Positions 1,890 through 45,561 of a DNA stretch of 64,000 nt are shown here, in pieces. Numbering within the stretch: position 1 is the first letter of the stretch; every line of letters starts with the position of its first letter. The notes under the pieces are model-generated. The model was not told where the DNA came from. It did no database searches and worked only from the letters and a program-made list of their open reading frames with translations. Made by a program: the position numbers and the translations under genes. The stretch lies in NCBI RefSeq assembly GCF_003334785.1, contig NZ_QOWV01000016.1; one strand, written 5' to 3'. The stretch is from Escherichia coli (GTDB taxonomy: Bacteria > Pseudomonadota > Gammaproteobacteria > Enterobacterales > Enterobacteriaceae).

Positions 1890-3344
1890 ATGTATATCGG
1901 GATAGATCTTGGCACCTCGGGCGTAAAAGTTATTTTGCTCAACGAGCAGGGTGAGGTGGTTGCTGCGCAAACGGAAAAGCTGACCGTTTCGCGCCCGCAT
2001 CCACTCTGGTCGGAACAAGACCCGGAACAGTGGTGGCAGGCAACTGATCGCGCAATGAAAGCTCTGGGCGATCAGCATTCTCTGCAGGACGTTAAAGCAT
2101 TGGGTATTGCCGGCCAGATGCACGGAGCAACCTTGCTGGATGCTCAGCAACGGGTGTTACGCCCTGCCATTTTGTGGAACGACGGGCGCTGTGCGCAAGA
2201 GTGCACTTTGCTGGAAGCGCGAGTTCCGCAATCGCGGGTGATTACCGGCAACCTGATGATGCCCGGATTTACTGCGCCTAAATTGCTATGGGTTCAGCGG
2301 CATGAGCCGGAGATATTCCGTCAAATCGACAAAGTATTATTACCGAAAGATTACTTGCGTCTGCGTATGACGGGGGAGTTTGCCAGCGATATGTCTGACG
2401 CAGCTGGCACCATGTGGCTGGATGTCGCAAAGCGTGACTGGAGTGACGTCATGCTGCAGGCTTGCGACTTATCTCGTGACCAGATGCCCGCATTATACGA
2501 AGGCAGCGAAATTACTGGTGCTTTGTTACCTGAAGTTGCGAAAGCGTGGGGTATGGCGACGGTGCCAGTTGTCGCAGGCGGTGGCGACAATGCAGCTGGT
2601 GCAGTTGGTGTGGGAATGGTTGATGCTAATCAGGCAATGTTATCGCTGGGGACGTCGGGGGTCTATTTTGCTGTCAGCGAAGGGTTCTTAAGCAAGCCAG
2701 AAAGCGCCGTACATAGCTTTTGCCATGCGCTACCGCAACGTTGGCATTTAATGTCTGTGATGCTGAGTGCAGCGTCGTGTCTGGATTGGGCCGCGAAATT
2801 AACCGGCCTGAGCAATGTCCCAGCTTTAATCGCTGCAGCTCAACAGGCTGATGAAAGTGCCGAGCCAGTTTGGTTTCTGCCTTATCTTTCCGGCGAGCGT
2901 ACGCCACACAATAATCCCCAGGCGAAGGGGGTTTTCTTTGGTTTGACTCATCAACATGGCCCCAATGAACTGGCGCGAGCAGTGCTGGAAGGCGTGGGTT
3001 ATGCGCTGGCAGATGGCATGGATGTCGTGCATGCCTGCGGTATTAAACCGCAAAGTGTTACGTTGATTGGGGGCGGGGCGCGTAGTGAGTACTGGCGTCA
3101 GATGCTGGCGGATATCAGCGGTCAGCAGCTCGATTACCGTACGGGGGGGGATGTGGGGCCAGCACTGGGCGCAGCAAGGCTGGCGCAGATCGCGGCGAAT
3201 CCAGAGAAATCGCTCATTGAATTGTTGCCGCAACTACCGTTAGAACAGTCGCATCTACCAGATGCGCAGCGTTATGCCGCTTATCAGCCACGACGAGAAA
3301 CGTTCCGTCGCCTCTATCAGCAACTTCTGCCATTAATGGCGTAA
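1890..3344 (+). CDS. xylB: Xylulokinase (484 aa)
   Basis: MYIGIDLGTSGVKVILL... FGGY-family sugar kinase immediately downstream of xylA (71-bp gap). Confidence 0.95.
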   Translation: MYIGIDLGTSGVKVILLNEQGEVVAAQTEKLTVSRPHPLWSEQDPEQWWQATDRAMKALGDQHSLQDVKALGIAGQMHGATLLDAQQRVLRPAILWNDGRCAQECTLLEARVPQSRVITGNLMMPGFTAPKLLWVQRHEPEIFRQIDKVLLPKDYLRLRMTGEFASDMSDAAGTMWLDVAKRDWSDVMLQACDLSRDQMPALYEGSEITGALLPEVAKAWGMATVPVVAGGGDNAAGAVGVGMVDANQAMLSLGTSGVYFAVSEGFLSKPESAVHSFCHALPQRWHLMSVMLSAASCLDWAAKLTGLSNVPALIAAAQQADESAEPVWFLPYLSGERTPHNNPQAKGVFFGLTHQHGPNELARAVLEGVGYALADGMDVVHACGIKPQSVTLIGGGARSEYWRQMLADISGQQLDYRTGGDVGPALGAARLAQIAANPEKSLIELLPQLPLEQSHLPDAQRYAAYQPRRETFRRLYQQLLPLMA

Positions 3345-3512
3345 ACGTTATCCCCTGCCTGACCGGGTGGGGGATAATTCACATCTATATATCTCAGTAA
3401 TTAATTAATATTTAGTATGAATTTATTCTGAAAATCATTTGTTAATGGCATTTTTCAGTTTTGTCTTTCGTTGGTTACTCGTAATGTATCGCTGGTAGAT
3501 ATGGAGATCGTT

Positions 3513-3854
3513 ATGAAAACCTCAAAGACTGTGGCAAAACTATTATTTGTTGTCGGGGCGCTGGTTTATCTGGTTGGGCTATGGATCTCATGCCCATTGT
3601 TAAGTGGAAAAGGCTATTTTCTTGGCGTGTTAATGACAGCAACTTTTGGCAACTATGCATATCTTCGCGCAGAAAAACTCGGGCAACTGGATGATTTTTT
3701 TACCCATATCTGCCAGTTAGTTGCGTTAATCACTATCGGTCTCTTGTTTATCGGTGTTTTAAACGCACCTATCAATACTTATGAAATGGTGATCTATCCC
3801 ATCGCCTTTTTTGTCTGCTTGTTTGGTCAAATGCGTTTGTTTCGCTCGGCATGA
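3513..3854 (+). CDS. yiaB: Small inner-membrane protein YiaB (113 aa)
   Basis: ORF 3471..3854; internal ATG at 3513 preceded by GGAG gives MKTSKTVAKLLFVVGALVYLVGLW..., hydrophobic, paralogous to the next ORF. Confidence 0.8.
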   Translation: MKTSKTVAKLLFVVGALVYLVGLWISCPLLSGKGYFLGVLMTATFGNYAYLRAEKLGQLDDFFTHICQLVALITIGLLFIGVLNAPINTYEMVIYPIAFFVCLFGQMRLFRSA

Positions 3855-3899
3855 GCAACATAAAGCTCTTACATATTCAGGAATGAAAGGAATACTGTG

Positions 3900-4337
3900 A
3901 TGGACAACAAAATATCAACCTATTCACCGGCCTTTAGTATTGTGTCATGGATAGCTCTCGTTGGTGGTATCGTTACCTATCTGTTAGGGCTATGGAATGC
4001 AGAGATGCAGTTAAATGAAAAAGGATATTATTTTGCCGTACTGGTATTAGGACTGTTTTCTGCGGCGTCTTATCAAAAGACCGTTCGGGACAAGTATGAA
4101 GGCATACCGACCACTTCCATTTATTATATGACCTGCCTGACTGTCTTTATTATCTCTGTTGCATTACTGATGGTAGGTCTGTGGAATGCGACATTATTAC
4201 TCAGCGAAAAAGGTTTTTATGGACTGGCTTTCTTCTTAAGCTTGTTTGGTGCAGTAGCGGTGCAGAAAAATATTCGTGATGCCGGAATAAACCCACCAAA
4301 AGAAACACAGGTTACCCAGGAAGAATACAGCGAATAA
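3900..4337 (+). CDS. yiaA: Small inner-membrane protein YiaA (145 aa)
   Basis: ORF 3897..4337; [32 protein letters not shown]...; two internal repeats of the YiaA/YiaB motif (..GLWNA...EKG(Y/F)Y..). Confidence 0.85.
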
Positions 4338-5848: not shown

Positions 5849-5942
5849 GCCCTGCTTTTTCCCGTTTCGTACTGTATATCTTCCATCCAGCGAGTATACT
5901 GATCCCTTCCTTTAAATCCACACGTATCCAGCACGAAATAAT

Positions 5943-6854
5943 ATGCAAAAGTTTGATACCAGGACCTTCCAGGGCTTGATCCTGACCTTACAGGATTACT
6001 GGGCTCGCCAGGGCTGCACCATTGTTCAACCATTGGACATGGAAGTCGGCGCGGGAACCTCTCACCCAATGACCTGTCTGCGCGCGCTGGGGCCAGAACC
6101 GATGGCGGCTGCTTATGTTCAGCCTTCTCGTCGCCCGACCGATGGTCGCTACGGCGAAAACCCCAACCGTTTACAGCACTACTATCAGTTCCAGGTGGTC
6201 ATTAAGCCATCGCCGGACAATATTCAGGAGCTGTACCTCGGTTCTCTGAAAGAGCTGGGCATGGACCCGACTATTCACGACATCCGTTTCGTGGAAGATA
6301 ACTGGGAAAACCCGACGCTGGGTGCCTGGGGACTGGGCTGGGAAGTGTGGCTGAACGGCATGGAAGTGACGCAGTTCACTTACTTCCAGCAGGTTGGTGG
6401 TCTGGAGTGTAAACCGGTTACCGGCGAGATCACCTACGGTCTGGAACGTCTGGCCATGTACATTCAGGGCGTAGACAGCGTTTACGACCTGGTCTGGAGC
6501 GACGGCCCGCTGGGTAAAACCACCTACGGCGACGTGTTCCATCAGAACGAAGTGGAGCAGTCCACTTACAACTTCGAATACGCGGATGTGGACTTCCTGT
6601 TCACCTGCTTCGAGCAGTACGAGAAAGAAGCGCAGCAGCTGCTGGCGCTGGAAAATCCGCTGCCGCTGCCAGCCTACGAGCGTATTCTGAAAGCCGCCCA
6701 CAGCTTCAACCTGCTGGATGCGCGTAAAGCCATCTCCGTCACCGAGCGTCAGCGCTACATTCTGCGCATTCGCACCCTGACCAAAGCAGTGGCAGAAGCA
6801 TACTACGCTTCCCGTGAAGCCCTCGGCTTCCCGATGTGCAACAAAGATAAGTAA
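5943..6854 (+). CDS. glyQ: Glycine--tRNA ligase alpha subunit (303 aa)
   Basis: [25 protein letters not shown]...; 9 bp upstream of glyS. Confidence 0.95.
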
Positions 6855-8977: not shown

Positions 8978-9211
8978 TCGCTAAATAATACAGCAACCTT
9001 TAATAATCTTCTGCTGAATAAAGATTATCTCATATATTAATTTTATGAGATTTTTTTAGGATTATATCAAGGAGAAGAAACAAACTTATTAAGCTAGAAT
9101 AGCCACGGGTGCTTGAGACTGTTTGTCTCAGGTATTCACCGAAAGGCAGACAGAGAAAAGCCCCACCTGACTATAAATCAAAGTTTGTACTGACCCCAAA
9201 AAGTTGGACAG

Positions 9212-10063
9212 TTAAACACGAGGCATATAGGTCTGATTCCGATATTCAATTGGAGTCAGACCTTTTAATTTCAGGCTAATTCTTCTGCTGTTGTAGTATT
9301 CAATATATTCCGTAACAGCATCCTTCAGTTCGCTTATATTACTGAACTCATCAAGATAAAAACACTCCGACTTTAAGGTTCCAAAGAAACACTCCACCAC
9401 AGCATTATCCAGACAATTGCCTTTTCTGGACATGCTTTGTTTAATACCATGTTCTTTAAGGATATTTTGATATCTTCTCATACGATACTGCCATCCCTGG
9501 TCAGAGTGCAGAACAGGATGCTCGTGAGGATTAAGCTTTTTGAATGCCTGATCGAGCATATTCTCAACCATGTTCATCACTGGTCTTTCCGAAAGGCTGT
9601 AAGAAATAACTTCGTTGTTGAAGAGATCTATTACTGGAGACAAATACAGCTTGCGCCCATTGACTGCAAATTCAGTAACATCGGTAACCCACTTCTCGTT
9701 TGGCCGCGTAGCCTTGAAATCTCTTTGGAGAACATTAGGGGCGGTTTGCCCTACCTCTCCTCTGTAAGAGCGGTATCGCTTGACCTTAATCGCTGCTTTA
9801 AGTGAGAGGGTTCCCATCAGGCGCTGAACAGCTTTATGGTTAATCTGTTTCCCTTCTCGATGAAGAGACAGCGTTACCCTACGGTATCCGTATCGGCCTC
9901 TATTCTCGTGATAAATCTCACTAATACGCTTTTTAACGTCCGCATACTTGTCAGGCTTGCTGAGAGCCTTTAGATGATAATAAAACGTACTGCGCGGTAT
10001 CTCCGCAGCCCTGAGAAGCTCATCAAGAGGATAAAACTGCCTTAGCTCGTTGAGTACTTTCAC
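9212..10063 (-). CDS. insK: IS150 transposase OrfB (DDE catalytic domain), 283 aa
   Basis: [32 protein letters not shown]... IS3-family integrase core; GTG start overlapping the orfA stop. Confidence 0.9.
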
Positions 10064-10581
10064 TTTTTCGTGGGATGAGCTAAGGCTTTCAGCTTTTTTA
10101 GATACATAAGCCGCGTTTCAAGAAATCGAACTTGCCTTTCAAGATCCTCAATGCGTCGGTCTTTTGACAGCTCCAATGCTGATGCCGCTTTTTCTGGATC
10201 AACTGATATTGCAATGTTTCTTTTGGTGCCAATCTTGAGCGCGCGTAAACCAGCTTCTCCGCGCTCTTCATAGACCTTCAGCCACCTGGCTACAGAACCA
10301 CTACCAGCAAGCATAAAGTGAGCAGCAGCCTGATTAAGGGACATGTGCTGCTCGATCACAGCTTTCACGACCTTAATACGCAACTCTGGATCAGCACTAA
10401 CGCCTTTAGGTTTGGGAATTAAACCTTTTTCTCCATGTTTTTCATAGAGGGCAACCCATGTCCTGACCTGGGTTCGGGGGACACCAAAACGTGCCGAGAT
10501 GATCCTGTAACCATCATCAGTTGTGAAGTAGTGATTCACGACTTCAAGGCGCTTTTCAAAAGGGTATTTTGGCTTTGACAT
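10060..10581 (-). CDS. insJ: IS150 OrfA (HTH DNA-binding), 173 aa
   Basis: MSKPKYPFEKRLEVVNHYFTTDDGYRIISARFGVPRTQVRTWV...; ends ...HPTKK* overlapping orfB. Confidence 0.9.
   Translation of the reverse strand: MSKPKYPFEKRLEVVNHYFTTDDGYRIISARFGVPRTQVRTWVALYEKHGEKGLIPKPKGVSADPELRIKVVKAVIEQHMSLNQAAAHFMLAGSGSVARWLKVYEERGEAGLRALKIGTKRNIAISVDPEKAASALELSKDRRIEDLERQVRFLETRLMYLKKLKALAHPTKK
10093..10099 (-). other. Candidate programmed -1 ribosomal frameshift heptamer (A AAA AAG) for OrfAB fusion
   Basis: Minus-strand A AAA AAG in the orfA frame, inside the region where the orfB frame is already open; a second A AAA AAG sits at the orfA stop (10063..10069). Which one is used cannot be decided from sequence. 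Confidence 0.5.
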
Positions 10582-10660
10582 ATTAGGGGCTATTCCATTT
10601 CATCGTCCAACAAAATGGGTGCAGTACATACTCGTTGGAAATCAACACAGGAGGCTGGGA

Positions 10661-10999: not shown

Positions 11000-11212
11000 T
11001 TACAGGCTGGTTACGTTACCAGCTGCCGGGCCTTTAGCGCCGCTTTCGATGGTGAAGGACACTTTCTGACCTTCGTCCAGAGATTTGTAACCATCGTTCT
11101 GGATAGCAGAGAAGTGTACGAACACATCTTTAGAGCCATCGTCAGGAGTGATGAAGCCGAAGCCTTTGTCAGCGTTGAACCATTTTACGATACCAGCCAT
11201 TTTACCGGACAT
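11000..11212 (-). CDS. cspA: Major cold-shock protein CspA (70 aa)
   Basis: [73 protein letters not shown]1/RNP2 motifs present. Confidence 0.97.
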
Positions 11213-22568: not shown

Positions 22569-22902
<334 letters not shown>

Positions 22903-29397: not shown

Positions 29398-29426
29398 CTC
29401 ACAAAACCGGGGCCATGCGCTCCGGT

Positions 29427-31173: not shown

Positions 31174-31281
31174 ATGACGTTCGCAGAGCTGGGCATGGCC
31201 TTCTGGCATGATTTAGCGGCTCCGGTCATTGCTGGCATTCTTGCCAGTATGATCGTGAACTGGCTGAACAAGCGGAAGTAA
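31174..31281 (+). CDS. ldrD: Type I toxin LdrD (35 aa)
   Basis: MTFAELGMAFWHDLAAPVIAGILASMIVNWLNKRK: Ldr-family small hydrophobic toxin; the upstream in-frame 56 codons of ORF 31006..31281 are judged non-coding. Confidence 0.85.
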   Translation: MTFAELGMAFWHDLAAPVIAGILASMIVNWLNKRK

Positions 31282-31367: not shown

Positions 31368-33047
31368 TTACTGCGGGTAAGGCACCCAGTCGCCGCCGTT
31401 CAGGCGAACGTACGGTTTATCCTGGTATTGAATAACTACTGCATTTGAGTTCTCGGAGACCGGTGCTGTTTGTGGCAACCCACTGGTGAGTTTTTTCCAG
31501 TCAACATTGTCTTCGGTGAAAATCTTGCCATCGAGAACGCGAACCACCAGATCGGAGATAGCCAGGAAGCTGCTCGGTTGTTCGATGACAATCGGTGCCC
31601 CCTGATGCGGTGCCTTCATGCCGAAGAATTTCACCCCAACGGGGACGTCGGTGATAGACGGGCTAGGGATATCACGTAGGCCAGATACCTGCATTCTGTC
31701 GCCCTTCAGCGCGCCGCCGTGTTCCGGCACCACGACCACCATCACTTTACGACCCGATTTCTCAAGTTCAGTAAAGAAGGCGTCCAGTTCATCAAAGAAT
31801 TTCTGCGCCCGCGCTTTGTAATCCGCTGTTTTGCTGACCCCCGGATAATGGTTGCCGTCATGCAGTGGAAGAGTGTTGTAGAACGTGGCACTACGGCTGT
31901 TTTTATCTTTTTCGGTAACGTCCAGCCAGCGGTTAAGCACAGCGGTATCGTCATAAACCGGCGAACCATCAAAGCCCAGCAAAATAACCGGCAGATTTGT
32001 TTGATCCATCAATTCGCTCTGCATGCCGCCATTTTCGCGAACTTCTTTCAAAAAACCGCCGAACTGGCCGTTATGTCCCATCATCAGGTGCTGGGTAAAG
32101 CCCAGTTTCGAAAGGTTATCAAACAGATAGCAGTCGTTATTTGCCGGTTGATACAGATTAGTGTGCGAAGTCTGCCCGCAGCTGGCGCGCAGTAAACGGA
32201 TCGCCGCCGGGCCACTGTAGGAGGTGGCGGAGTTAAAGTTCTTGAACTCAATATCGAAATGCGACCACAGTGGATGCGACATCAACCCGGCGGCTTCTAT
32301 ATCCGACCAGGAAAGCGAACAGATGTTAATCACCAGTAGTTCAAATGGCTGAGCATCAGCGGGCAGCGAAGACGGGAAGGTCGATTTACGTTTCGCCTCC
32401 GCGTTATAGAAATTATTCAGCCAGGCGTTAAGGTTCGCCGTTGTTGGCGGTGCAGTTTGTGCGGGCATATCACCCACTACCGGTGCGCCACCCGTCGCCG
32501 CAACGGTTGCCGCTGCGTTACCACCCGTCGTTGTTACAGTGGTCGTCGGTTGTCCGGCTGGCCACAAGGAGAAACTTGGTCCCGCCAGGGTAAGTACGTT
32601 CAGCCATAGCAGTATGGCAACCACAAAAACGGTAATGCGAATCCATTGTGACAGGAATAACCAGGCCACTAATAAAACAAAAATGGCCCCAATCATCTGC
32701 CAGTTAATAAAGCGTGTGACAAGGTCGATTAAATAATCGGTACTGAACCCCGCCACCTGCGAACCCTGGCTCATTATGCTTTCCGGGCCAGGCAACCAGG
32801 TGTCATGCCAGAACAAAGCAAAGCCGATCGGCAGGGCAATCCAGTGGCGCAAGCGATGCAGGCTGTAGCGCGGAAGGGGCATCAGCAGAAACGCGGCAAA
32901 CACCAAATTGAGGAGCGGATGGAAGTTAAGATATCCCGCCCACAACAGGCCGAACTTAACCAGAAAATAGAAGTTCCAGCCGGAAAGGCCGCGCCAGTAT
33001 TGCCAGAGGGAAGAAGGCATGGCGGTATTTTGCGTAAATTGAGTCAT
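31368..33047 (-). CDS. bcsG: Cellulose biosynthesis protein BcsG (559 aa)
   Basis: [39 protein letters not shown]...; N-terminal TM domain plus periplasmic alkaline-phosphatase-like domain. Confidence 0.9.
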
Positions 33048-33235
33048 TTTTTGGTTGCCCTGGCTTTTTCCGTGCGGCGTAACGTCCCGGCCGGTTTAAC
33101 ATAACGAGGTTTAGCAAAGAACAAACGTAAGGTGTCGCGAATGCGTCGCAAAGAGTGCCGCGCCAGATAGCCCAGCGGGAAAAATATCAGTGCGCAAACG
33201 ACAATAATTTCAATGATATCGCTGATGGTCATCAT
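33044..33235 (-). CDS. bcsF: Cellulose biosynthesis protein BcsF (63 aa, single TM)
   Basis: [34 protein letters not shown]...; translationally coupled between bcsE and bcsG. Confidence 0.85.
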
Positions 33236-34803
33236 GATGAGCGCTCCACAGCATCATCTAACAGTCGCATGGGTTCTGGTATTCGTCGCCAGTGGCGACC
33301 ATCGTGCTCGGCATTGATGACCGGTTTAGAACTTTGCGTTAAAGGCAGCGGCATGCCCCATTGTTCTGGGGCAAGCAAGCGCATCTGCACCAGCTCGGCA
33401 CTGATTTGATCATCTTCAAACCAGACCATACGGTTTGAGAAAATGTCGCCAGTAGGCAATGGGAAAATATGATTCAACGCGGTATCCAGATCGTTAATCC
33501 GACAGAATGAGAGAAACAGCACCAGCCGATTACCGCCAATGGTCATGATATCGCCGGTACGGTTAGGGCGACACAGCGTCAGGGCTTGTTCAACGCGGAT
33601 ACCCGGTACCGGACGTAGGGCAACCAGAACGCCTTTACCGTGGGCAGGTAATAGAGGGTTATTCATCATGTTGTTGACGGCATTACAGAACACATCCCAC
33701 TTCTGGAAACCACGCAGTTTGAGCGGCTGGGTCATTGACAGCAAGGTAGTGATATCTTCCGGCACATAGCGACTAAACTTCTGCCCTTGCACGCTTTCGA
33801 TCATCGTCAGACAACGGGAGAGTGGCGCATTCCACGGAATAACCATATTTGCACCGCAGGCCAATAACAAACGTTCATCGGTGGCGCGCAGGCTAGCGGT
33901 ATTTTCCCGCACGAGGATTTTCATCGCACTACCGCGCTGGCGACGCAGGGTATGAATGCTGCGGGCCAGTGGCTCGATTTGCGCATTTTGCTGTAAAGAA
34001 AAGACCACCGTCGCCGCCTGAGCGGTACGGGCTTCATTGAACAGGACTTCGTTATTGTTGAACAGTTGCCAGTGTTCCGATAGCGGCGGCGCACCTTCCA
34101 GTACAGCAACATTACTCAGAATGCGTTTTTCGTCGCTGCGTGGTTGGATCTCCGCCTCTTCGCTTTGAACTAATGTCCAGATACCATTTTGTTGCTGAAC
34201 GCTAAGCTGCTGACGGGCGCTGACCCCTTTTTCGTTGCACCAGAAGGCAATATCCAGCAAATGTTGGTCACCCTGAAAACGCAAACTGGCAAGACCAAAA
34301 AGTGAACGGTATTCCTCAAGCAACAATGAAAATTGTTTATCGTTATTATTTCCGGGATTAATTACCAAAAGCGAACAATGGTTTAACCTGCTCCATTTAT
34401 TCATTTTATCCAACCATGAGCGAAGCCGCTCGGCAGGAATGTTTTGCCATGCGTTATTTGCGCAAACAAGAATAAAAAGGTAATTATGGGGATCAATAGA
34501 ACACTGCAAATCACGGGTCAAATAGTATAGACCTTTTTCATGATTTAGCATTGAAAATAATTTTATTTTTTCCGGCCCTTGAGAATCATCTAATTGAAAG
34601 ATTTTCGCCGGATCGCTGTCCATGCTAATGACCGCGACGTGTGCGGTTTCAGCCTGGGATGCAATTGTTTGATTCGCCAGACTGATAGCATCTTCATGGC
34701 GATCGACGTTAAACCACCAGACGCCGCCTGCTGGCATATGTCGCAGCTCATCCCATAATGATGAGATACCGATAGAGAATACAGGGTCCACAATGTCCCT
34801 CAT
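33232..34803 (-). CDS. bcsE: Cellulose biosynthesis protein BcsE (c-di-GMP-binding GIL domain), 523 aa
   Basis: [42 protein letters not shown]...; first gene of the divergent bcsEFG operon. Confidence 0.9.
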
Positions 34804-35075
34804 GTCACCATTTTGTCTGATTATCAGTTTACTAGCGAAAGCTAAGAAATAAACCTACCATTGAAATTAAAACTTATCAGATTTAGCATGTGAATCAATT
34901 TAGAAGGTCACAAGACGTGTGATTTTAGTCTTTTCGTTTTTAACTTTTTCTGTTGCGTAACGGAAAGTCAAAAAGTGAGCAAATTCCCGTCTCGCCGTAA
35001 ACAATAAACCGGCGAAATGCTCACGGTTAGAATTGTCTCATGAACGGTACGGTTATTTCATAGGGATCAAGCAAA

Positions 35076-35264
35076 ATGAATAACAATGAACCAGATACTC
35101 TGCCTGATCCCGCGATAGGCTATATCTTCCAGAATGATATTGTGGCGTTAAAGCAGGCATTTTCACTGCCTGATATTGATTATGCCGATATTTCCCAACG
35201 CGAACAGTTGGCCGCGGCATTAAAACGCTGGCCGTTGCTGGCAGAGTTTGCGCAACAAAAGTAG
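35076..35264 (+). CDS. bcsR: Cellulose biosynthesis regulator BcsR (62 aa)
   Basis: MNNNEPDTLPDPAIGYIFQNDIVALKQAFSLPDIDYADISQREQLAAALKRWPLLAEFAQQK. Confidence 0.85.
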   Translation: MNNNEPDTLPDPAIGYIFQNDIVALKQAFSLPDIDYADISQREQLAAALKRWPLLAEFAQQK

Positions 35265-35275
35265 GGGATTGGTGA

Positions 35276-36028
35276 ATGGCCGTACTGGGATTGCAGGGGG
35301 TGCGGGGAGGCGTGGGGACAACAACCATCACCGCCGCATTAGCCTGGTCATTACAAATGTTGGGAGAAAATGTCCTGGTGGTCGATGCCTGCCCGGACAA
35401 CTTGTTGCGCCTGTCATTTAATGTTGATTTTACCCACCGTCAGGGCTGGGCCAGAGCGATGCTGGATGGCCAGGACTGGCGTGACGCTGGGTTGCGCTAC
35501 ACCTCGCAGCTCGATTTGCTGCCTTTTGGTCAGTTATCCATTGAAGAACAAGAAAATCCACAGCACTGGCAAACCCGGCTGAGCGATATTTGCTCCGGCT
35601 TACAGCAACTAAAAGCCAGCGGGCGTTACCAGTGGATTTTAATCGACTTACCGCGTGATGCCTCGCAGATAACCCACCAGCTGCTGAGTTTGTGCGATCA
35701 CTCGCTGGCAATCGTCAATGTGGATGCCAACTGCCATATCCGACTGCATCAGCAAGCGCTGCCGGATGGCGCACATATTTTGATTAATGACTTCCGTATT
35801 GGCAGTCAGGTTCAGGACGATATTTACCAGCTTTGGTTGCAAAGCCAGCGCCGATTACTGCCGATGCTCATTCATCGTGATGAAGCGATGGCTGAATGCC
35901 TGGCGGCTAAGCAACCAGTAGGTGAATATCGCAGTGATGCGCTGGCGGCTGAAGAGATACTGACGCTGGCGAACTGGTGCCTGTTGAACTACTCCGGGCT
36001 GAAAACGCCAGTCGGGAGTGCATCATGA
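35276..36028 (+). CDS. bcsQ: Cellulose biosynthesis protein BcsQ (MinD/ParA-type ATPase), full-length 250 aa
   Basis: MAVLGLQGVRGGVGTTTITAALAWSLQ... uninterrupted; codon 6 is TTG (Leu) at about 35291..35293; deviant Walker A GVRGGVGTTT. Confidence 0.9.
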   Translation: MAVLGLQGVRGGVGTTTITAALAWSLQMLGENVLVVDACPDNLLRLSFNVDFTHRQGWARAMLDGQDWRDAGLRYTSQLDLLPFGQLSIEEQENPQHWQTRLSDICSGLQQLKASGRYQWILIDLPRDASQITHQLLSLCDHSLAIVNVDANCHIRLHQQALPDGAHILINDFRIGSQVQDDIYQLWLQSQRRLLPMLIHRDEAMAECLAAKQPVGEYRSDALAAEEILTLANWCLLNYSGLKTPVGSAS

Positions 36029-38643
36029 GTATCCTGACCCGGTGGTTGCTTATCCCGCCGGTCAACGCGCGGCTTATCGGGCGTTATCGCGATTATCGTC
36101 GTCACGGTGCGTCGGCTTTCAGCGCGACGCTCGGCTGTTTCTGGATGATCCTGGCCTGGATTTTTATTCCGCTGGAGCACCCGCGCTGGCAGCGTATTCG
36201 CGCAGAACATAAAAACCTGTATCCGCATATCAACGCCTCGCGTCCGCGTCCGCTGGACCCGGTCCGTTATCTCATTCAAACATGCTGGTTATTGATCGGT
36301 GCATCGCGCAAAGAAACGCCGAAACCGCGCAGGCGGGCATTTTCAGGTCTGCAAAATATTCGTGGACGTTACCATCAATGGATGAACGAGCTGCCTGAGC
36401 GCGTTAGCCATAAAACACAGCATCTGGATGAGAAAAAAGAGCTCGGTCATTTGAGTGCCGGGGCGCGGCGGTTGATCCTCGGTATCATCGTCACCTTCTC
36501 GCTGATTCTGGCGTTAATCTGCGTTACTCAGCCGTTTAACCCGCTGGCGCAGTTTATCTTCCTGATGCTGCTGTGGGGGGTAGCGCTGATCGTACGGCGG
36601 ATGCCGGGGCGCTTCTCGGCGCTAATGTTGATTGTGCTGTCGCTGACCGTTTCTTGCCGTTATATCTGGTGGCGTTACACCTCTACGCTGAACTGGGACG
36701 ATCCGGTCAGCCTGGTGTGCGAGCTTATTCTGCTCTTCGCTGAAACGTACGCGTGGATTGTGCTGGTGCTCGGCTACTTCCAGGTAGTATGGCCGCTGAA
36801 TCGTCAGCCGGTGCCATTGCCGAAAGATATGTCGCTGTGGCCGTCGGTGGATATCTTTGTCCCGACTTACAACGAAGATCTCAACGTGGTGAAAAATACC
36901 ATTTACGCCTCGCTGGGTATCGACTGGCCGAAAGATAAGCTGAATATCTGGATCCTTGATGACGGCGGCAGGGAAGAGTTTCGCCAGTTTGCGCAAAACG
37001 TGGGGGTGAAATATATCGCCCGCACCACTCATGAACATGCGAAAGCAGGCAACATCAACAATGCGCTGAAATATGCCAAAGGCGAGTTCGTGTCGATTTT
37101 CGACTGCGACCACGTACCAACGCGATCGTTCTTGCAAATGACCATGGGCTGGTTCCTGAAAGAAAAACAGCTGGCGATGATGCAGACGCCGCACCACTTC
37201 TTCTCACCGGACCCGTTTGAACGCAACCTGGGGCGTTTCCGTAAAACGCCGAACGAAGGCACGCTGTTCTATGGTCTGGTGCAGGATGGCAACGATATGT
37301 GGGACGCCACTTTCTTCTGCGGTTCCTGTGCGGTGATTCGTCGTAAGCCGCTGGATGAAATTGGCGGCATTGCTGTCGAAACCGTGACTGAAGATGCGCA
37401 TACTTCTCTGCGGTTGCACCGTCGTGGCTATACCTCCGCGTATATGCGTATTCCGCAGGCGGCGGGGCTGGCGACCGAAAGTCTGTCGGCGCATATCGGT
37501 CAGCGTATTCGCTGGGCGCGCGGGATGGTACAAATCTTCCGTCTCGATAACCCGCTCACCGGTAAAGGGCTGAAGTTTGCTCAGCGGCTATGTTACGTCA
37601 ACGCCATGTTCCACTTCTTGTCGGGCATTCCACGGCTGATCTTCCTGACTGCGCCGCTGGCGTTCCTGCTGCTTCATGCCTACATCATCTATGCGCCAGC
37701 GTTGATGATCGCCCTATTCGTGCTGCCGCATATGATCCATGCCAGCCTGACCAACTCCAAGATCCAGGGCAAATATCGCCACTCTTTCTGGAGTGAAATC
37801 TACGAAACGGTGCTGGCGTGGTATATCGCACCACCGACGCTGGTGGCGCTGATTAACCCGCACAAAGGCAAATTTAACGTCACCGCCAAAGGTGGACTGG
37901 TGGAAGAAGAGTACGTCGACTGGGTGATCTCGCGGCCCTACATCTTCCTTGTCCTGCTCAACCTGGTGGGCGTTGCGGTAGGCATCTGGCGCTACTTCTA
38001 TGGCCCGCCAACCGAGATGCTCACCGTGGTCGTCAGTATGGTGTGGGTGTTCTACAACCTGATTGTTCTTGGCGGCGCAGTTGCGGTATCGGTAGAAAGC
38101 AAACAGGTACGCCGATCGCACCGCGTGGAGATGACGATGCCCGCGGCAATTGCCCGCGAAGATGGTCACCTCTTCTCGTGTACCGTTCAGGATTTCTCCG
38201 ACGGTGGTTTGGGGATCAAGATCAACGGTCAGGCGCAGATTCTGGAAGGGCAGAAAGTGAATCTGTTGCTTAAACGCGGTCAGCAGGAATACGTCTTCCC
38301 GACCCAGGTGGCGCGCGTGATGGGTAATGAAGTTGGGCTGAAATTAATGCCGCTCACCACCCAGCAACATATCGATTTTGTGCAGTGTACGTTTGCCCGT
38401 GCGGATACATGGGCGCTCTGGCAGGACAGCTACCCGGAAGATAAGCCGCTGGAAAGTCTGCTGGATATTCTGAAGCTCGGCTTCCGTGGCTACCGCCATC
38501 TGGCGGAGTTTGCGCCTTCTTCGGTGAAGGGCATATTCCGTGTGCTGACTTCTCTGGTTTCCTGGGTTGTATCGTTTATTCCGCGCCGCCCGGAGCGGAG
38601 CGAAACGGCACAACCATCGGATCAGGCTTTGGCTCAACAATGA
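36025..38643 (+). CDS. bcsA: Cellulose synthase catalytic subunit BcsA (GT2 plus PilZ), 872 aa
   Basis: ORF 35977..38643; start at MSILTRWLLIPPVNARL... (ATGA overlap with the bcsQ stop); GT2 motifs D,D,D and QxxRW (QRIRWARG); C-terminal PilZ domain. Confidence 0.95.
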   Translation: MSILTRWLLIPPVNARLIGRYRDYRRHGASAFSATLGCFWMILAWIFIPLEHPRWQRIRAEHKNLYPHINASRPRPLDPVRYLIQTCWLLIGASRKETPKPRRRAFSGLQNIRGRYHQWMNELPERVSHKTQHLDEKKELGHLSAGARRLILGIIVTFSLILALICVTQPFNPLAQFIFLMLLWGVALIVRRMPGRFSALMLIVLSLTVSCRYIWWRYTSTLNWDDPVSLVCELILLFAETYAWIVLVLGYFQVVWPLNRQPVPLPKDMSLWPSVDIFVPTYNEDLNVVKNTIYASLGIDWPKDKLNIWILDDGGREEFRQFAQNVGVKYIARTTHEHAKAGNINNALKYAKGEFVSIFDCDHVPTRSFLQMTMGWFLKEKQLAMMQTPHHFFSPDPFERNLGRFRKTPNEGTLFYGLVQDGNDMWDATFFCGSCAVIRRKPLDEIGGIAVETVTEDAHTSLRLHRRGYTSAYMRIPQAAGLATESLSAHIGQRIRWARGMVQIFRLDNPLTGKGLKFAQRLCYVNAMFHFLSGIPRLIFLTAPLAFLLLHAYIIYAPALMIALFVLPHMIHASLTNSKIQGKYRHSFWSEIYETVLAWYIAPPTLVALINPHKGKFNVTAKGGLVEEEYVDWVISRPYIFLVLLNLVGVAVGIWRYFYGPPTEMLTVVVSMVWVFYNLIVLGGAVAVSVESKQVRRSHRVEMTMPAAIAREDGHLFSCTVQDFSDGGLGIKINGQAQILEGQKVNLLLKRGQQEYVFPTQVARVMGNEVGLKLMPLTTQQHIDFVQCTFARADTWALWQDSYPEDKPLESLLDILKLGFRGYRHLAEFAPSSVKGIFRVLTSLVSWVVSFIPRRPERSETAQPSDQALAQQ

Positions 38644-38653
38644 TGATAACGCG

Positions 38654-40993
38654 ATGAAAAGAAAACTATTCTGGATTTGTGCAGTGGCTATGGGGATGAG
38701 TGCGTTCCCCTCTTTCATGACGCAGGCGACGCCAGCAACGCAACCACTGATCAATGCTGAGCCAGCTGTAGCCGCCCAGACGGAACAAAATCCGCAGGTG
38801 GGGCAAGTGATGCCGGGCGTGCAGGGCGCTGATGCGCCAGTCGTGGCGCAGAACGGTCCTTCGCGTGATGTGAAGCTGACCTTTGCGCAAATTGCACCGC
38901 CGCCGGGCAGCATGGTGCTACGTGGCATTAACCCGAACGGCAGCATTGAGTTTGGTATGCGCAGCGATGAAGTGGTGACGAAGGCGATGCTCAACCTCGA
39001 ATACACCCCATCGCCATCGTTACTGCCTGTCCAGTCGCAGTTAAAGGTTTATCTCAATGATGAACTGATGGGCGTGCTGCCAGTGACCAAAGAACAGTTG
39101 GGTAAAAAAACGCTGGCGCAAATGCCCATTAACCCACTGTTTATTACCGACTTCAACCGTGTACGGCTGGAGTTTGTCGGCCATTATCAGGACGTGTGCG
39201 AAAACCCGGCCAGCACCACGCTTTGGCTGGATGTTGGGCGGAGCAGTGGACTGGATCTGACCTATCAGACCCTGAATGTGAAGAATGACCTGTCACACTT
39301 CCCGGTGCCATTCTTTGACCCGCGCGATAACCGCACCAACACCTTGCCGATGGTCTTTGCGGGTGCGCCGGATGTTGGGCTGCAACAAGCCTCTGCCATT
39401 GTCGCCTCGTGGTTTGGTTCGCGTTCTGGCTGGCGTGGGCAGAACTTCCCGGTACTCTATAACCAACTGCCGGATCGCAATGCCATTGTCTTTGCAACCA
39501 ACGACAAACGGCCGGACTTCCTGCGCGATCATCCGGCGGTAAAAGCCCCGGTGATTGAGATGATTAACCATCCGCAGAATCCTTACGTCAAACTGCTGGT
39601 GGTGTTTGGTCGTGACGACAAAGACCTGTTGCAGGCAGCGAAAGGTATCGCTCAGGGTAACATTCTGTTCCGTGGTGAAAGCGTGGTAGTGAATGAAGTG
39701 AAACCGCTGCTACCGCGTAAGCCGTACGATGCGCCGAACTGGGTACGTACCGATCGTCCGGTCACATTTGGCGAACTGAAAACCTATGAAGAACAGTTAC
39801 AATCCAGCGGTCTTGAGCCAGCAGCGATTAACGTTTCGCTAAACCTGCCGCCGGATCTCTACCTGATGCGCAGTACCGGCATTGATATGGATATTAATTA
39901 CCGCTACACCATGCCGCCGGTGAAAGACAGTTCGCGGATGGATATCAGCCTGAATAACCAGTTCCTGCAATCCTTCAACCTGAGCAGCAAACAGGAGGCG
40001 AACCGCCTGCTGCTGCGGATTCCGGTATTACAAGGTTTGCTGGATGGCAAAACAGATGTCTCTATTCCGGCGCTGAAACTGGGCGCGACCAACCAGCTGC
40101 GCTTCGACTTTGAGTATATGAACCCGATGCCGGGCGGTTCGGTGGATAACTGTATTACCTTCCAGCCGGTGCAGAATCATGTGGTGATTGGTGACGACTC
40201 CACCATCGACTTCTCGAAGTATTACCACTTCATCCCGATGCCGGATCTACGCGCCTTTGCTAACGCGGGCTTCCCATTCAGCCGGATGGCGGATCTGTCG
40301 CAAACCATCACCGTGATGCCGAAAGCGCCTAACGAAGCACAGATGGAAACGTTGCTGAATACTGTTGGTTTTATCGGCGCACAGACGGGCTTCCCGGCGA
40401 TTAATCTGACGGTGACCGATGATGGCAGCACCATTCAGGGCAAAGATGCCGACATCATGATCATCGGTGGTATCCCGGACAAACTGAAAGACGATAAGCA
40501 GATCGACCTATTGGTGCAGGCGACCGAAAGCTGGGTGAAAACACCGATGCGCCAGACCCCGTTCCCCGGCATTGTGCCGGACGAGAGCGATCGCGCGGCA
40601 GAAACCCGGTCAACGCTGACCTCTTCCGGTGCGATGGCGGCGGTGATTGGCTTCCAGTCGCCGTATAACGACCAGCGCAGCGTGATTGCGCTGTTGGCAG
40701 ATAGCCCACGCGGTTATGAAATGCTTAACGATGCGGTGAACGATAGCGGCAAACGCGCCACCATGTTCGGTTCGGTCGCGGTGATCCGCGAGTCCGGTAT
40801 CAACAGCCTACGTGTTGGCGACGTTTATTACGTAGGTCATCTGCCGTGGTTCGAGCGCGTGTGGTATGCGCTGGCAAACCATCCGATTCTGCTGGCGGTG
40901 CTGGCGGCTATCAGTGTGATATTGCTGGCATGGGTACTGTGGCGTCTGCTGCGAATTATTAGTCGTCGTCGTCTTAACCCGGATAACGAGTAA
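38654..40993 (+). CDS. bcsB: Cellulose synthase periplasmic subunit BcsB (779 aa)
   Basis: ORF 38567..40993; start at MKRKLFWICAVAMGMSAFPSFMTQA (signal peptide); C-terminal TM anchor. Confidence 0.95.
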   Translation: MKRKLFWICAVAMGMSAFPSFMTQATPATQPLINAEPAVAAQTEQNPQVGQVMPGVQGADAPVVAQNGPSRDVKLTFAQIAPPPGSMVLRGINPNGSIEFGMRSDEVVTKAMLNLEYTPSPSLLPVQSQLKVYLNDELMGVLPVTKEQLGKKTLAQMPINPLFITDFNRVRLEFVGHYQDVCENPASTTLWLDVGRSSGLDLTYQTLNVKNDLSHFPVPFFDPRDNRTNTLPMVFAGAPDVGLQQASAIVASWFGSRSGWRGQNFPVLYNQLPDRNAIVFATNDKRPDFLRDHPAVKAPVIEMINHPQNPYVKLLVVFGRDDKDLLQAAKGIAQGNILFRGESVVVNEVKPLLPRKPYDAPNWVRTDRPVTFGELKTYEEQLQSSGLEPAAINVSLNLPPDLYLMRSTGIDMDINYRYTMPPVKDSSRMDISLNNQFLQSFNLSSKQEANRLLLRIPVLQGLLDGKTDVSIPALKLGATNQLRFDFEYMNPMPGGSVDNCITFQPVQNHVVIGDDSTIDFSKYYHFIPMPDLRAFANAGFPFSRMADLSQTITVMPKAPNEAQMETLLNTVGFIGAQTGFPAINLTVTDDGSTIQGKDADIMIIGGIPDKLKDDKQIDLLVQATESWVKTPMRQTPFPGIVPDESDRAAETRSTLTSSGAMAAVIGFQSPYNDQRSVIALLADSPRGYEMLNDAVNDSGKRATMFGSVAVIRESGINSLRVGDVYYVGHLPWFERVWYALANHPILLAVLAAISVILLAWVLWRLLRIISRRRLNPDNE

Positions 40994-40999
40994 TTGAAG

Positions 41000-42106
41000 A
41001 TGAATGTGTTGCGTAGTGGAATCGTGACGATGCTGCTGCTGGCTGCCTTTAGTGTTCAGGCAGCCTGTACCTGGCCTGCCTGGGAGCAGTTTAAAAAGGA
41101 TTACATCAGTCAGGAAGGGCGCGTCATCGACCCCAGCGACGCGCGCAAAATCACCACCTCCGAAGGGCAAAGTTACGGCATGTTCTCTGCCCTGGCGGCT
41201 AACGACCGTGCAGCTTTCGATAATATTCTCGACTGGACGCAGAACAATCTCGCTCAGGGTTCTTTAAAAGAACGTTTGCCCGCCTGGCTGTGGGGCAAGA
41301 AAGAGAACAGTAAGTGGGAAGTGCTGGACAGCAATTCGGCCTCCGATGGTGATGTCTGGATGGCCTGGTCGTTGCTGGAGGCGGGGCGTTTGTGGAAAGA
41401 GCAGCGTTATACCGACATCGGCAGCGCGTTGCTAAAACGTATCGCGCGGGAGGAAGTGGTGACGGTGCCTGGGCTGGGTTCCATGTTGTTACCGGGCAAA
41501 GTGGGTTTTGCTGAGGATAACAGCTGGCGTTTTAACCCCAGCTACCTGCCGCCGACGCTGGCGCAGTATTTCACCCGCTTTGGCGCGCCGTGGACCACGC
41601 TGCGCGAAACCAATCAACGTTTATTGCTGGAAACCGCCCCGAAAGGTTTTTCGCCAGACTGGGTGCGCTATGAGAAAGACAAAGGCTGGCAGCTAAAAGC
41701 CGAAAAAACATTGATCAGCAGCTACGACGCTATCCGCGTTTACATGTGGGTAGGCATGATGCCTGACAGCGATCCGCAAAAAGCGCGGATGCTCAACCGG
41801 TTTAAACCGATGGCGACATTCACTGAGAAAAACGGTTATCCGCCGGAAAAAGTGGATGTGGCTACGGGGAAAGCGCAGGGTAAAGGACCAGTCGGTTTTT
41901 CTGCCGCCATGCTGCCCTTTTTACAAAACCGCGATGCGCAGGCCGTTCAGCGCCAGCGCGTGGCCGATAACTTTCCCGGCAGCGATGCCTATTACAACTA
42001 TGTGCTGACCCTGTTTGGACAAGGCTGGGATCAACACCGTTTCCGCTTCTCGACAAAAGGTGAGTTATTACCTGACTGGGGCCAGGAATGCGCAAATTCA
42101 CACTAA
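41000..42106 (+). CDS. bcsZ: Endo-1,4-beta-glucanase BcsZ (GH8 cellulase), about 368 aa
   Basis: [35 protein letters not shown]...[10 protein letters not shown]...; first ATG at 41000 used. Confidence 0.9.
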
Positions 42107-45100
42107 ACATATTCACGCTTTCCCTCGGTCTGGCCGTCATGCCGATGGTCGAGGCAGCACCAACCGCTCAGCAACAGTTGCTGGAGCAAGTTCGGTTAGG
42201 CGAAGCGACCCATCGTGAAGATCTGGTGCAACAGTCGTTATATCGGCTGGAACTTATTGATCCGAATAACCCGGACGTCGTTGCCGCCCGTTTCCGTTCT
42301 TTGTTACGTCAGGGCGATATTGATGGCGCGCAAAAACAGCTCGATCGGCTGTCGCAGTTAGCGCCGAGTTCAAATGCGTATAAATCGTCGCGGACTACGA
42401 TGCTACTTTCCACGCCGGATGGTCGTCAGGCACTGCAACAGGCACGATTGCAGGCGACGACCGGTCATGCAGAAGAAGCTGTGGCGAGTTACAACAAACT
42501 GTTCAACGGTGCGCCGCCGGAAGGTGACATTGCTGTCGAGTACTGGAGTACGGTGGCGAAAATTCCGGCTCGCCGTGGCGAAGCGATTAATCAGTTAAAA
42601 CGCATCAATGCGGATGCACCGGGCAATACGGGCCTGCAAAACAATCTGGCGCTATTGCTGTTTAGTAGCGATCGCCGTGACGAAGGTTTTGCCGTCCTGG
42701 AACAGATGGCAAAATCGAACGCCGGGCGCGAAGGGGCCTCTAAAATCTGGTACGGGCAGATTAAAGACATGCCCGTCAGTGATGCCAGTGTGTCGGCGCT
42801 GAAAAAATATCTCTCGATCTTTAGTGATGGCGATAGCGTGGCGGCTGCGCAATCGCAACTGGCAGAACAGCAAAAACAGCTGGCCGATCCTGCTTTCCGC
42901 GCTCGTGCGCAAGGTTTAGCGGCGGTGGACTCTGGTATGGCGGGTAAAGCCATTCCCGAACTACAACAGGCGGTGCGGGCGAACCCGAAAGACAGTGAAG
43001 CTCTGGGGGCGCTGGGCCAGGCGTATTCTCAGAAAGGCGATCGCGCCAATGCAGTGGCGAATCTGGAAAAAGCCCTCGCACTGGACCCGCACAGCAGCAA
43101 CAACGACAAATGGAACAGTCTGCTGAAAGTAAACCGCTACTGGCTGGCGATCCAGCAGGGCGATGCTGCGCTGAAAGCCAATAATCCTGACCGGGCAGAA
43201 CGCCTGTTCCAGCAGGCGCGTAATGTCGATAACACCGACAGTTATGCAGTGCTGGGGCTGGGCGATGTGGCGATGGCGCGAAAAGATTATCCCGCCGCCG
43301 AACGTTATTATCAGCAGACCTTGCGTATGGACAGCGGCAACACTAACGCCGTGCGCGGGCTGGCAAATATTTACCGCCAGCAATCGCCAGAAAAAGCTGA
43401 AGCGTTTATCGCCTCGCTCTCTGCCAGTCAGCGGCGTAGCATTGATGATATCGAACGCAGCCTGCAAAACGACCGTCTGGCACAGCAGGCAGAGGCACTG
43501 GAAAACCAGGGCAAATGGGCGCAGGCGGCAGCACTTCAGCGGCAACGACTGGCGCTGGACCCCGGCAGCGTATGGATTACTTACCGACTTTCGCAGGATC
43601 TCTGGCAGGCCGGACAACGCAGCCAGGCCGATACGTTAATGCGCAATCTGGCGCAGCAGAAGTCGAACGACCCGGAGCAGGTTTACGCTTACGGGCTGTA
43701 CCTCTCTGGTCATGACCAGGACAGAGCGGCGCTGGCGCATATCAACAGCCTGCCGCGTGCGCAGTGGAACAGCAATATTCAGGAGCTGGTTAATCGACTG
43801 CAAAGCGATCAGGTGCTGGAAACCGCTAACCGCCTGCGAGAAAGCGGCAAAGAGGCAGAAGCGGAAGCGATGCTGCGCCAGCAACCACCTTCCACGCGTA
43901 TTGACCTCACGCTGGCTGACTGGGCGCAACAACGACGTGATTACACCGCCGCCCGCGCTGCATATCAGAATGTCCTGACGCGGGAGCCAGCTAACGCCGA
44001 CGCCATTCTTGGTCTGACGGAAGTGGATATTGCTGCCGGTGACAAAGCGGCGGCACGTAGCCAGCTGGCGAAACTGCCCGCTACCGATAACGCCTCGCTG
44101 AACACACAGCGGCGCGTGGCGCTGGCACAGGCGCAGCTTGGCGATACCGCAGCAGCGCAGCGGACGTTTAATAAGTTGATCCCGCAGGCAAAATCTCAGC
44201 CACCGTCGATGGAAAGCGCGATGGTGCTGCGTGATGGTGCGAAGTTTGAAGCGCAGGCGGGCGATCCAACGCAGGCGCTGGAAACCTACAAAGACGCCAT
44301 GGTCGCATCCGGTGTGACTACGACGCGTCCGCAGGATAACGACACCTTTACCCGACTGACCCGTAACGACGAGAAAGATGACTGGCTGAAACGTGGCGTG
44401 CGCAGCGATGCGGCGGACCTCTATCGCCAGCAGGATCTTAACGTCACCCTTGAGCACGATTACTGGGGTTCGAGCGGCACCGGTGGTTACTCCGATCTGA
44501 AAGCGCACACTACCATGTTGCAGGTGGATGCGCCGTATTCTGACGGGCGGATGTTCTTTCGCAGTGATTTCGTCAATATGAACGTCGGCAGTTTCTCCAC
44601 TAATGCCGATGGCAAATGGGATGACAACTGGGGCACCTGTACATTACAGGACTGTAGCGGCAACCGCAGCCAGTCGGATTCCGGTGCCAGCGTGGCGGTC
44701 GGCTGGCGAAATGACGTCTGGAGCTGGGATATCGGTACCACGCCGATGGGCTTCAACGTGGTGGATGTGGTCGGCGGCATCAGTTACAGCGATGATATCG
44801 GGCCGCTGGGTTACACCGTTAACGCCCACCGTCGGCCCATCTCCAGTTCTTTGCTGGCCTTTGGTGGGCAAAAAGACTCCCCGAGCAATACCGGGAAAAA
44901 ATGGGGTGGCGTACGTGCCGACGGTGTGGGGCTAAGTCTGAGCTACGATAAAGGTGAAGCAAACGGCGTCTGGGCATCGCTTAGTGGCGACCAGTTAACC
45001 GGTAAAAATGTCGAAGATAACTGGCGCGTGCGCTGGATGACGGGCTATTACTATAAGGTCATTAACCAGAACAATCGCCGCGTCACAATCGGCCTGAACA

Positions 45101-45561
45101 ACATGATCTGGCATTACGACAAAGATCTGAGTGGCTACTCACTCGGTCAGGGCGGTTACTACAGTCCGCAGGAATACCTGTCGTTTGCCATACCGGTGAT
45201 GTGGCGGGAGCGCACGGAAAACTGGTCGTGGGAGCTGGGTGCGTCTGGCTCGTGGTCGCATTCACGCACCAAAACCATGCCGCGTTATCCGCTGATGAAT
45301 CTGATCCCGACCGACTGGCAGGAAGAAGCTGCGCGGCAATCCAACGATGGCGGCAGCAGTCAGGGCTTCGGCTACACGGCGCGGGCATTACTTGAACGAC
45401 GTGTTACTTCCAACTGGTTTGTTGGCACGGCAATTGATATCCAGCAGGCGAAAGATTACGCACCCAGCCATTTCCTGCTCTACGTACGTTATTCCGCCGC
45501 CGGATGGCAGGGTGACATGGATTTACCGCCGCAGCCGCTGATACCTTACGCCGACTGGTAA
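42088..45561 (+). CDS. bcsC: Cellulose export protein BcsC (TPR repeats plus C-terminal outer-membrane beta-barrel), 1157 aa
   Basis: [45 protein letters not shown]...; start overlaps the bcsZ 3' end. Confidence 0.95.

Follow-up and report, generated by a model that had tools for sequence, protein, structure and literature searches.

Escherichia coli bcsQ with TTG at codon 6 in a probable close natural relative of K-12, accompanied by a rare G233E substitution in BcsA

The window, by which we mean the whole 64-kb stretch of DNA analysed here, very probably represents a natural Escherichia coli lineage that is a very close relative of K-12, and not a K-12 laboratory strain, and its bcsQ carries the ancestral TTG at codon 6. 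We infer that this lineage belongs to phylogroup A. The TTG/TAG polymorphism at codon 6, its phenotype and its repair are already known and have been published since 2013. The K-12 annotation should not be transferred to the window: here, bcsQ is a gene and not a pseudogene. The part that holds some remaining interest is a rare substitution in BcsA (G233E), which qualifies any claim that the cellulose locus is competent.

The ORF listing gives bcsQ (35276..36028, plus strand) as an uninterrupted 250-aa open reading frame with the start MAVLGLQGVRGGVGTTT, and the sequence from 35276 reads ATG GCC GTA CTG GGA TTG CAG GGG GTG. The first-pass annotation had described an intact bcsQ with TTG at codon 6, and it was exact in both coordinates and description. 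It had also proposed aligning the codon-6 region to MG1655, and this alignment returns a single T/A difference: across window positions 35060-36040 and the reverse strand of MG1655 (NC_000913.3), 980 of 981 columns are identical, and the sole mismatch is T at window position 35292 versus A at MG1655 position 3695969 (i.e., TTG versus TAG). The codon-6 allele is a direct one-base reading, to which a chance test does not apply. Three short features of the gene are needed for what follows:

35291..35293, plus strand: bcsQ codon 6, TTG (Leu) in the window and TAG in K-12
35300..35302, plus strand: GTG, bcsQ codon 9, where the 242-aa bcsQ/yhjQ annotated in K-12 strains begins (C600 PGAP annotation)
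36025..36028, plus strand: ATGA, the bcsQ stop overlapping the bcsA start, read from the sequence

The product is the cellulose biosynthesis protein BcsQ, a MinD/ParA-like SIMIBI NTPase, based on a full-length equivalog match, a nucleotide-binding loop and the position of the gene. It scores 542.9 bits against the NCBIfam BcsQ equivalog NF007460 (cutoff 399), with residues 1-250 falling on profile positions 1-250, and 297.7 bits against TIGR03371 (cutoff 157.85). The nucleotide-binding loop GVRGGVGTTT (BcsQ residues 8-17) is in frame with the start, with no stop ahead of the loop in the window, and the gene sits between bcsR and bcsA in the order bcsRQABZC. The ATGA overlap suggests that bcsQ and bcsA may be translationally coupled. 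The same amino acid sequence, BCSQ_ECOLI, is encoded by at least 1000 contigs of the protein collection and is the form of BcsQ common in E. coli. At the nucleotide level, numerous genomes match the 1101-bp bcsR-bcsQ region at 100% identity, among them those of E. coli C, ETEC H10407 and ML35. According to Le Quere and Ghigo (2009), as cited in PMC5944007, BcsQ is needed for cellulose synthesis and shows polar localisation in vivo.

The K-12 allele has a well-documented history. MG1655 bcsQ (b3534, 3695233-3695985) is a pseudogene in the RefSeq annotation. The K-12 strain C600 carries A at the codon-6 SNP, like MG1655, and its PGAP bcsQ is a 729-nt CDS (242 codons plus the stop) that restarts at the codon-9 GTG, with C600 locus 3300-4028 corresponding to window positions 35300-36028; this call matches the historical 242-aa yhjQ restart that the first-pass annotation had mentioned. 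In W3110, codon 6 of bcsQ is TAG and the strain is cellulose negative, and editing TAG to TTG gave the cellulose-proficient AR3110 (PMC5014196, PMC7397504), the origin of which is given as Serra et al. 2013, as cited in PMC5014196. The SNP is 17T>A and arose in the K-12 common ancestor (PMC5944007). Thus, the first-pass statement that K-12 laboratory strains carry TAG at this codon agrees with the MG1655 alignment (TTG versus TAG) and, for W3110, with three papers (PMC5014196, PMC7397504, PMC5944007), which also agree that W3110 is cellulose negative because of it. The further statement that TAG is polar on bcsA is one published explanation but only one of two: loss of BcsQ function and polarity on downstream genes are both kept as options for the cause of the K-12 defect (PMC5944007). 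In the reading that we favour, TAG in MG1655, W3110 and C600 is a derived nonsense mutation of the K-12 lineage that halts BcsQ ahead of the nucleotide-binding loop (residues 8-17) and abolishes cellulose synthesis, and the window bcsQ, with the ancestral, species-wide sense codon TTG (Leu6), would be translated in full.

The difference at codon 6 does not stand by itself. Over its full 64 kb, the window aligns colinearly, and in reverse orientation, to MG1655 3667261-3731260; the alignment is gap-free and contains 14 mismatches. We tabulated alleles across the 64 kb for the window, the K-12 strains MG1655 and C600, and the natural isolates VE-F10, NCTC9038 and FORC 064. Seven sites separate MG1655 and C600, which agree with each other, from the window and the three natural isolates, which all have the alternative allele. 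These sites, and the remaining groups of alleles, are as follows:

918: xylA, synonymous, K-12 pair (918G in K-12) versus window and natural isolates
29661: yhjV, synonymous, K-12 pair (29661C in K-12) versus window and natural isolates
35292: bcsQ *6L (MG1655 to window), K-12 pair versus window and natural isolates
39147, 39205, 39323: bcsB S165T, K184N and S224R (MG1655 to window), K-12 (39147G/39205A/39323A) versus window and natural isolates
43746: bcsC, synonymous, K-12 pair (43746T in K-12) versus window and natural isolates
6085 (glyQ E48A, MG1655 to window) and 23314 (upstream of dppA): alleles of MG1655 only
5893 and 58260: alleles common to the window and VE-F10 only
11197 (cspA T6A), 31872 (bcsG, synonymous) and 36722 (bcsA G233E): window alleles missing from all five compared genomes

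Because the non-K-12 alleles of the window run from 918 to 58260, its non-K-12 ancestry extends over 57 kb or more. Of the complete genomes, that of VE-F10 was the closest found, at 5 SNPs per 64 kb versus 14 for MG1655. Among 5426 complete RefSeq E. coli genomes there was no exact full match to the window, and the best by bit score had 1, 2 and 1 mismatches in the successive thirds. Two of the differences look like MG1655-specific changes within K-12, namely, those at 6085 and 23314; GlyQ E48 is found in MG1655 alone, and A48 is found in C600, the window and the three natural isolates. As a separate observation, five of the seven K-12-versus-natural sites fall within the 10.5-kb bcsRQABZC operon (post hoc binomial P about 0.002), and four of these alter a protein in K-12 (the bcsQ amber and BcsB T165S, N184K and R224S), with the three in bcsB lying within 177 bp. 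This cluster suggests relaxed or altered selection on the cellulose genes in K-12 or, alternatively, a small imported patch.

How common is each allele in the species? We queried complete E. coli genomes with 61-mers centred on the SNP, for which one mismatch brings identity below 99%. The exact TAG 61-mer was found in 349 of 5245 genomes, and the exact TTG 61-mer was found in 3552, across pathotypes. The TAG matches listed from a spread sample (4 of the 349) are ER1709, AML003_ev02, 11202 and MG-phbCAB-3-5, all of them laboratory K-12-type names. Given these counts, TTG at codon 6 is the species-wide wild type, and the notable allele belongs to K-12 and not to the window. The K-12 form of the three bcsB SNPs (at least 99% identity) occurs in 358 of 5340 genomes, which parallels the TAG count; the surplus of about nine genomes over the 349 with the exact TAG 61-mer could be repaired or otherwise altered K-12 derivatives.

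One feature that seems to point toward K-12 is the insertion sequence at hokA:

9186..10628, minus strand: IS150 adjoining hokA, placed by colinearity with MG1655 3720633-3722075

When complete E. coli genomes were searched with a query spanning the IS150-hokA junction, 1638 of 5426 (about 30%) covered 80% or more of it; E. coli C and FORC 064 are among the carriers, as are numerous isolates from animals and humans. Thus, IS150 at hokA is not diagnostic of K-12 and is unsuitable as a K-12 marker; it is an old insertion common to a large group of strains. The first-pass annotation had judged everything else that it could assess, including IS150 in hokA, to look K-12-like. The window is less K-12-like than this, as it has 14 SNPs relative to MG1655, the non-K-12 base at all seven of the discriminating sites and an insertion carried by 1638 of 5426 genomes. 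In several genomes, the IS150 at hokA has itself been struck by a secondary IS1 or IS2, seen as two-piece matches. Elsewhere in the window, a perfect 108-bp direct repeat (22627-22734 and 22795-22902, 168 bp apart) lies directly downstream of tRNA-Pro (proK) and overlaps the "RtT sRNA" of the RefSeq annotation in related genomes; MG1655 has the repeat as well.

The lineage of the window can also be found in public data. Contigs 100% identical to the window come from GCA_002190295.1 (22.6 kb), ERR4578769 (17.6 kb) and ERR1948969 (9.5 kb), and all three identical spans include 31872, 35292 and 36722. A read-set contig with cspA T6A is 99.995% identical to the window over 20.2 kb. The independent drafts and read sets identical to the window indicate that this is a natural lineage, sampled several times, and that its alleles reflect neither assembly errors nor an isolated laboratory construct. 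In an exact-protein look-up, the window BcsA (G233E) and CspA (T6A) are both in public data, under accessions that lie near each other (EEZ6074374.1/EEZ6074351.1, HAH2816362.1/HAH2816019.1 and HAH8835612.1/HAH8835408.1 for BcsA/CspA), suggesting that single draft assemblies contain the two proteins together. The cspA change is at codon 6 (window position 11197, ACT to GCT); none of 5423 complete genomes has its exact 61-mer, and several drafts and read sets encode the exact T6A CspA protein, some with IS150 at hokA and some lacking it (L019-L023).

Three origins had been left standing for the window: a natural close relative, a repaired strain, or an assembly that differs from the reference. 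The allele table and the identical contigs support the first and reject the other two. A repaired K-12 derivative such as AR3110, with codon 6 edited from TAG to TTG, would account for the intact bcsQ; strains of this type with exactly this change exist (PMC5014196, PMC7397504), and the window is colinear with MG1655 without indels. However, AR3110 is said to derive directly from W3110, with a difference at codon 6, whereas the window differs from MG1655 at 13 more sites, which include all six of the other K-12-versus-natural sites (three of them bcsB missense changes), and alleles of the window recur among natural isolates and in read sets. In a repaired K-12, the bcsB triple allele of K-12 would be retained; the window does not have that allele and thus is not a repaired K-12. 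An AR3110-type origin is effectively refuted by the bcsB, bcsC, yhjV and xylA alleles of the window, and we regard it as extremely unlikely. Between dppF and yhjV, the site of the published bcsQ-wt transduction marker, the window has no indel or scar relative to MG1655. As for a sequencing or assembly error in a true K-12 genome, the T at 35292 is a difference of one base only, but it is accompanied by 13 further differences from MG1655, most of them common to natural isolates, and independent assemblies and read sets are 100% identical across 35292 over 9.5-22.6 kb. The allele table and the independent identical contigs together lead us to reject such an error, the chance of which we take to be negligible.

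Could the window instead be a segment from a natural E. coli donor in a K-12 background, brought in by transduction, conjugation or recombineering so that bcsQ was restored along with neighbouring alleles? The 64-kb window speaks for itself only and not for the rest of the chromosome, and a K-12 recipient of such a segment would look alike. P1 transduction fragments are roughly 100 kb, and the span of non-K-12 alleles from 918 to 58260 is within this size; over the final 20 kb, 58260 is the only site at which K-12 genomes and the window disagree. Set against these points, the independent drafts and read sets with identical sequence, including the rare bcsA, bcsG and cspA alleles, are a better fit to a circulating natural lineage, and the window contains no marker or scar for an imported segment. 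We consider import into K-12 to be very unlikely, and we proceed with the reading of the window as a natural lineage with a wild-type bcsQ.

What does this reading predict for cellulose? The genes of the locus are as follows:

31368..33047, minus strand: bcsG (phosphoethanolamine transferase), full length, with a synonymous SNP at 31872 missing from the five compared genomes
33044..33235, minus strand: bcsF, identical to MG1655
33232..34803, minus strand: bcsE, full length, identical to MG1655
35076..35264, plus strand: bcsR (yhjR), identical to MG1655
35276..36028, plus strand: bcsQ, intact, 250 codons
36025..38643, plus strand: bcsA, full length, 872 aa, carrying G233E
38654..40993, plus strand: bcsB, full length, with the natural T165, N184 and R224 (S, K and S in K-12)
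41000..42106, plus strand: bcsZ, identical to MG1655
42088..45561, plus strand: bcsC, full length, with one synonymous difference from K-12

The two divergently arranged sets, bcsRQABZC and bcsEFG, comprise nine genes, every one of them full length and with a single terminal stop, and all nine Bcs proteins score above their NCBIfam equivalog cutoffs. Given a bcsQ translated in full and a bcsQ stop that overlaps the bcsA start, bcsRQABZC is organised as in cellulose-producing strains. The first-pass annotation had gone further and predicted a locus competent for phosphoethanolamine-cellulose production. The full length of every gene in bcsRQABZC and bcsEFG bears out part of this prediction, but "competent" is too strong, given BcsA G233E and the regulators outside the window. 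The rare BcsA substitution means that full-length genes alone do not establish a cellulose-positive phenotype, and the regulators needed for cellulose synthesis (csgD, dgcC and rpoS) lie outside the window. The locus may well be expressed and make phosphoethanolamine-cellulose, but this would depend on G233E being tolerated and on those regulators.

The substitution itself is a single codon:

36721..36723, plus strand: bcsA codon 233, GAG (Glu) in the window and GGG (Gly) in K-12 and the natural relatives compared

The PDB has three E. coli BcsA sequences (7LBY, 9B8V and 9FMV), all with Gly at 233. G233E is the sole substitution in the 872-aa window BcsA when it is compared with K-12 BcsA or with two of these three. 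None of 5294 complete E. coli genomes has the bcsA 61-mer bearing G233E, the 61-mer around codon 233 being otherwise nearly invariant in E. coli, and the substituted protein is present in a few draft assemblies and read sets. Residue 233 is within the hydrophobic stretch PVSLVCGLILLFAETYAWIVLVLGYF, a predicted membrane helix directly ahead of the glycosyltransferase domain, which we take to be the fourth transmembrane helix of BcsA. With G233E, this helix gains a charged residue. We assessed conservation in a query-anchored alignment of 142 diverse BcsA representatives, 3 of which have gaps at the site, leaving 139 aligned. The residues at position 233 are G (55), S (30), A (19), V (13), T (6), M (4), I (4), L (3), C (2), F (1), D (1) and E (1); that is, 104 of the 139 aligned homologues have G, S or A, and 2 have an acidic residue. 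R. sphaeroides BcsA has Ala at the equivalent position. Seven residues past 233, E240 in the A-E-x-Y motif is invariant (139 of 139). On this alignment, G233E is an unusual but not forbidden change.

The substitution occurs on three bcsA nucleotide haplotypes (L012/L015/L018, L013/L017 and L014/L016), and the latter two are about 45-50 mostly synonymous SNPs away from the window bcsA. The nearest informative flanking SNPs lie about 180-620 bp (L013/L017) and about 210-1350 bp (L014/L016) from G233E. Its presence on several haplotypes implies that it has either recurred or moved on a short patch. Between yhjV and bcsG, the window (positions ~31174-31281) and L012 have one ldr toxin gene, L013 has two and L014 has three, and all share one BcsA protein.

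Based on these observations, it is possible, if unlikely, that bcsQ is intact and yet the locus is cellulose negative or attenuated because G233E impairs the synthase or the membrane channel, an outcome compatible with a natural, wild-type bcsQ. The absence of the substitution from the complete genomes, the Gly in every E. coli PDB sequence, the G, S or A of most homologues (including the Ala of R. sphaeroides), the location ahead of the glycosyltransferase domain and close to Glu240, and the presence on three haplotypes are all consistent with impairment. In addition, the BcsA protein sequence is reported to vary hardly at all within E. coli (PMC5944007), and loss or attenuation of cellulose through bcs mutations recurs across E. 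coli lineages (PMC10881479). On the other side, V, T, M, I and L also occur at the site, with one D and one E seen, and the G233E lineage persists in several samples. As evidence of selection on G233E, the multiple haplotypes are weak: many E. coli genomes have been sequenced, and a recurrent G-to-A transition at one site is a weak sign of selection. We found no mention of BcsA G233 in the convergent-evolution paper PMC10881479. A stronger version is quite unlikely in our estimation: under it, G233E would be recurrent and under selection among commensal E. coli lineages, weakening or changing their cellulose synthesis, and it would put another carboxylate at a distance of two helical turns from the invariant Glu240, in the membrane helix preceding the glycosyltransferase domain. 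If true, G233E would represent a further instance of convergent tuning of cellulose production by missense mutation, in contrast to the nonsense and frameshift mutations described so far.

The natural-lineage reading can be placed next to four known systems. E. coli VE-F10 (NZ_AP027946.1, Hanoi) is colinear with the window over 64 kb, shares its alleles at 5893 and 58260 and, like the window, has IS150 inserted in hokA and natural-type alleles of bcsQ and bcsB; it differs in lacking cspA T6A, bcsG 31872A and bcsA G233E and in having SNPs of its own at 29413 and 45384. AR3110 has the same TTG codon and an intact bcsQ, but in its otherwise K-12 background it would keep the K-12 alleles at 918, 29661, 39147, 39205, 39323 and 43746, which the window does not have. 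The K-12 bcsQ amber allele (MG1655, W3110 and C600) occupies the same locus and is identical to the window at 752 of 753 bases, and the K-12 bcsR, bcsE, bcsF and bcsZ are identical to those of the window; K-12 differs in its TAG at codon 6, its cellulose-negative phenotype and its annotation of bcsQ as a pseudogene or a 242-aa restart (PMC5944007). Finally, compared with wild-type E. coli bcsQ, as found in the cellulose-producing strain 1094 and most natural isolates, the window has no difference within bcsQ: it encodes the same 250-aa protein with TTG at codon 6, in the same bcsR-bcsQ-bcsA arrangement and with the same ATGA overlap.
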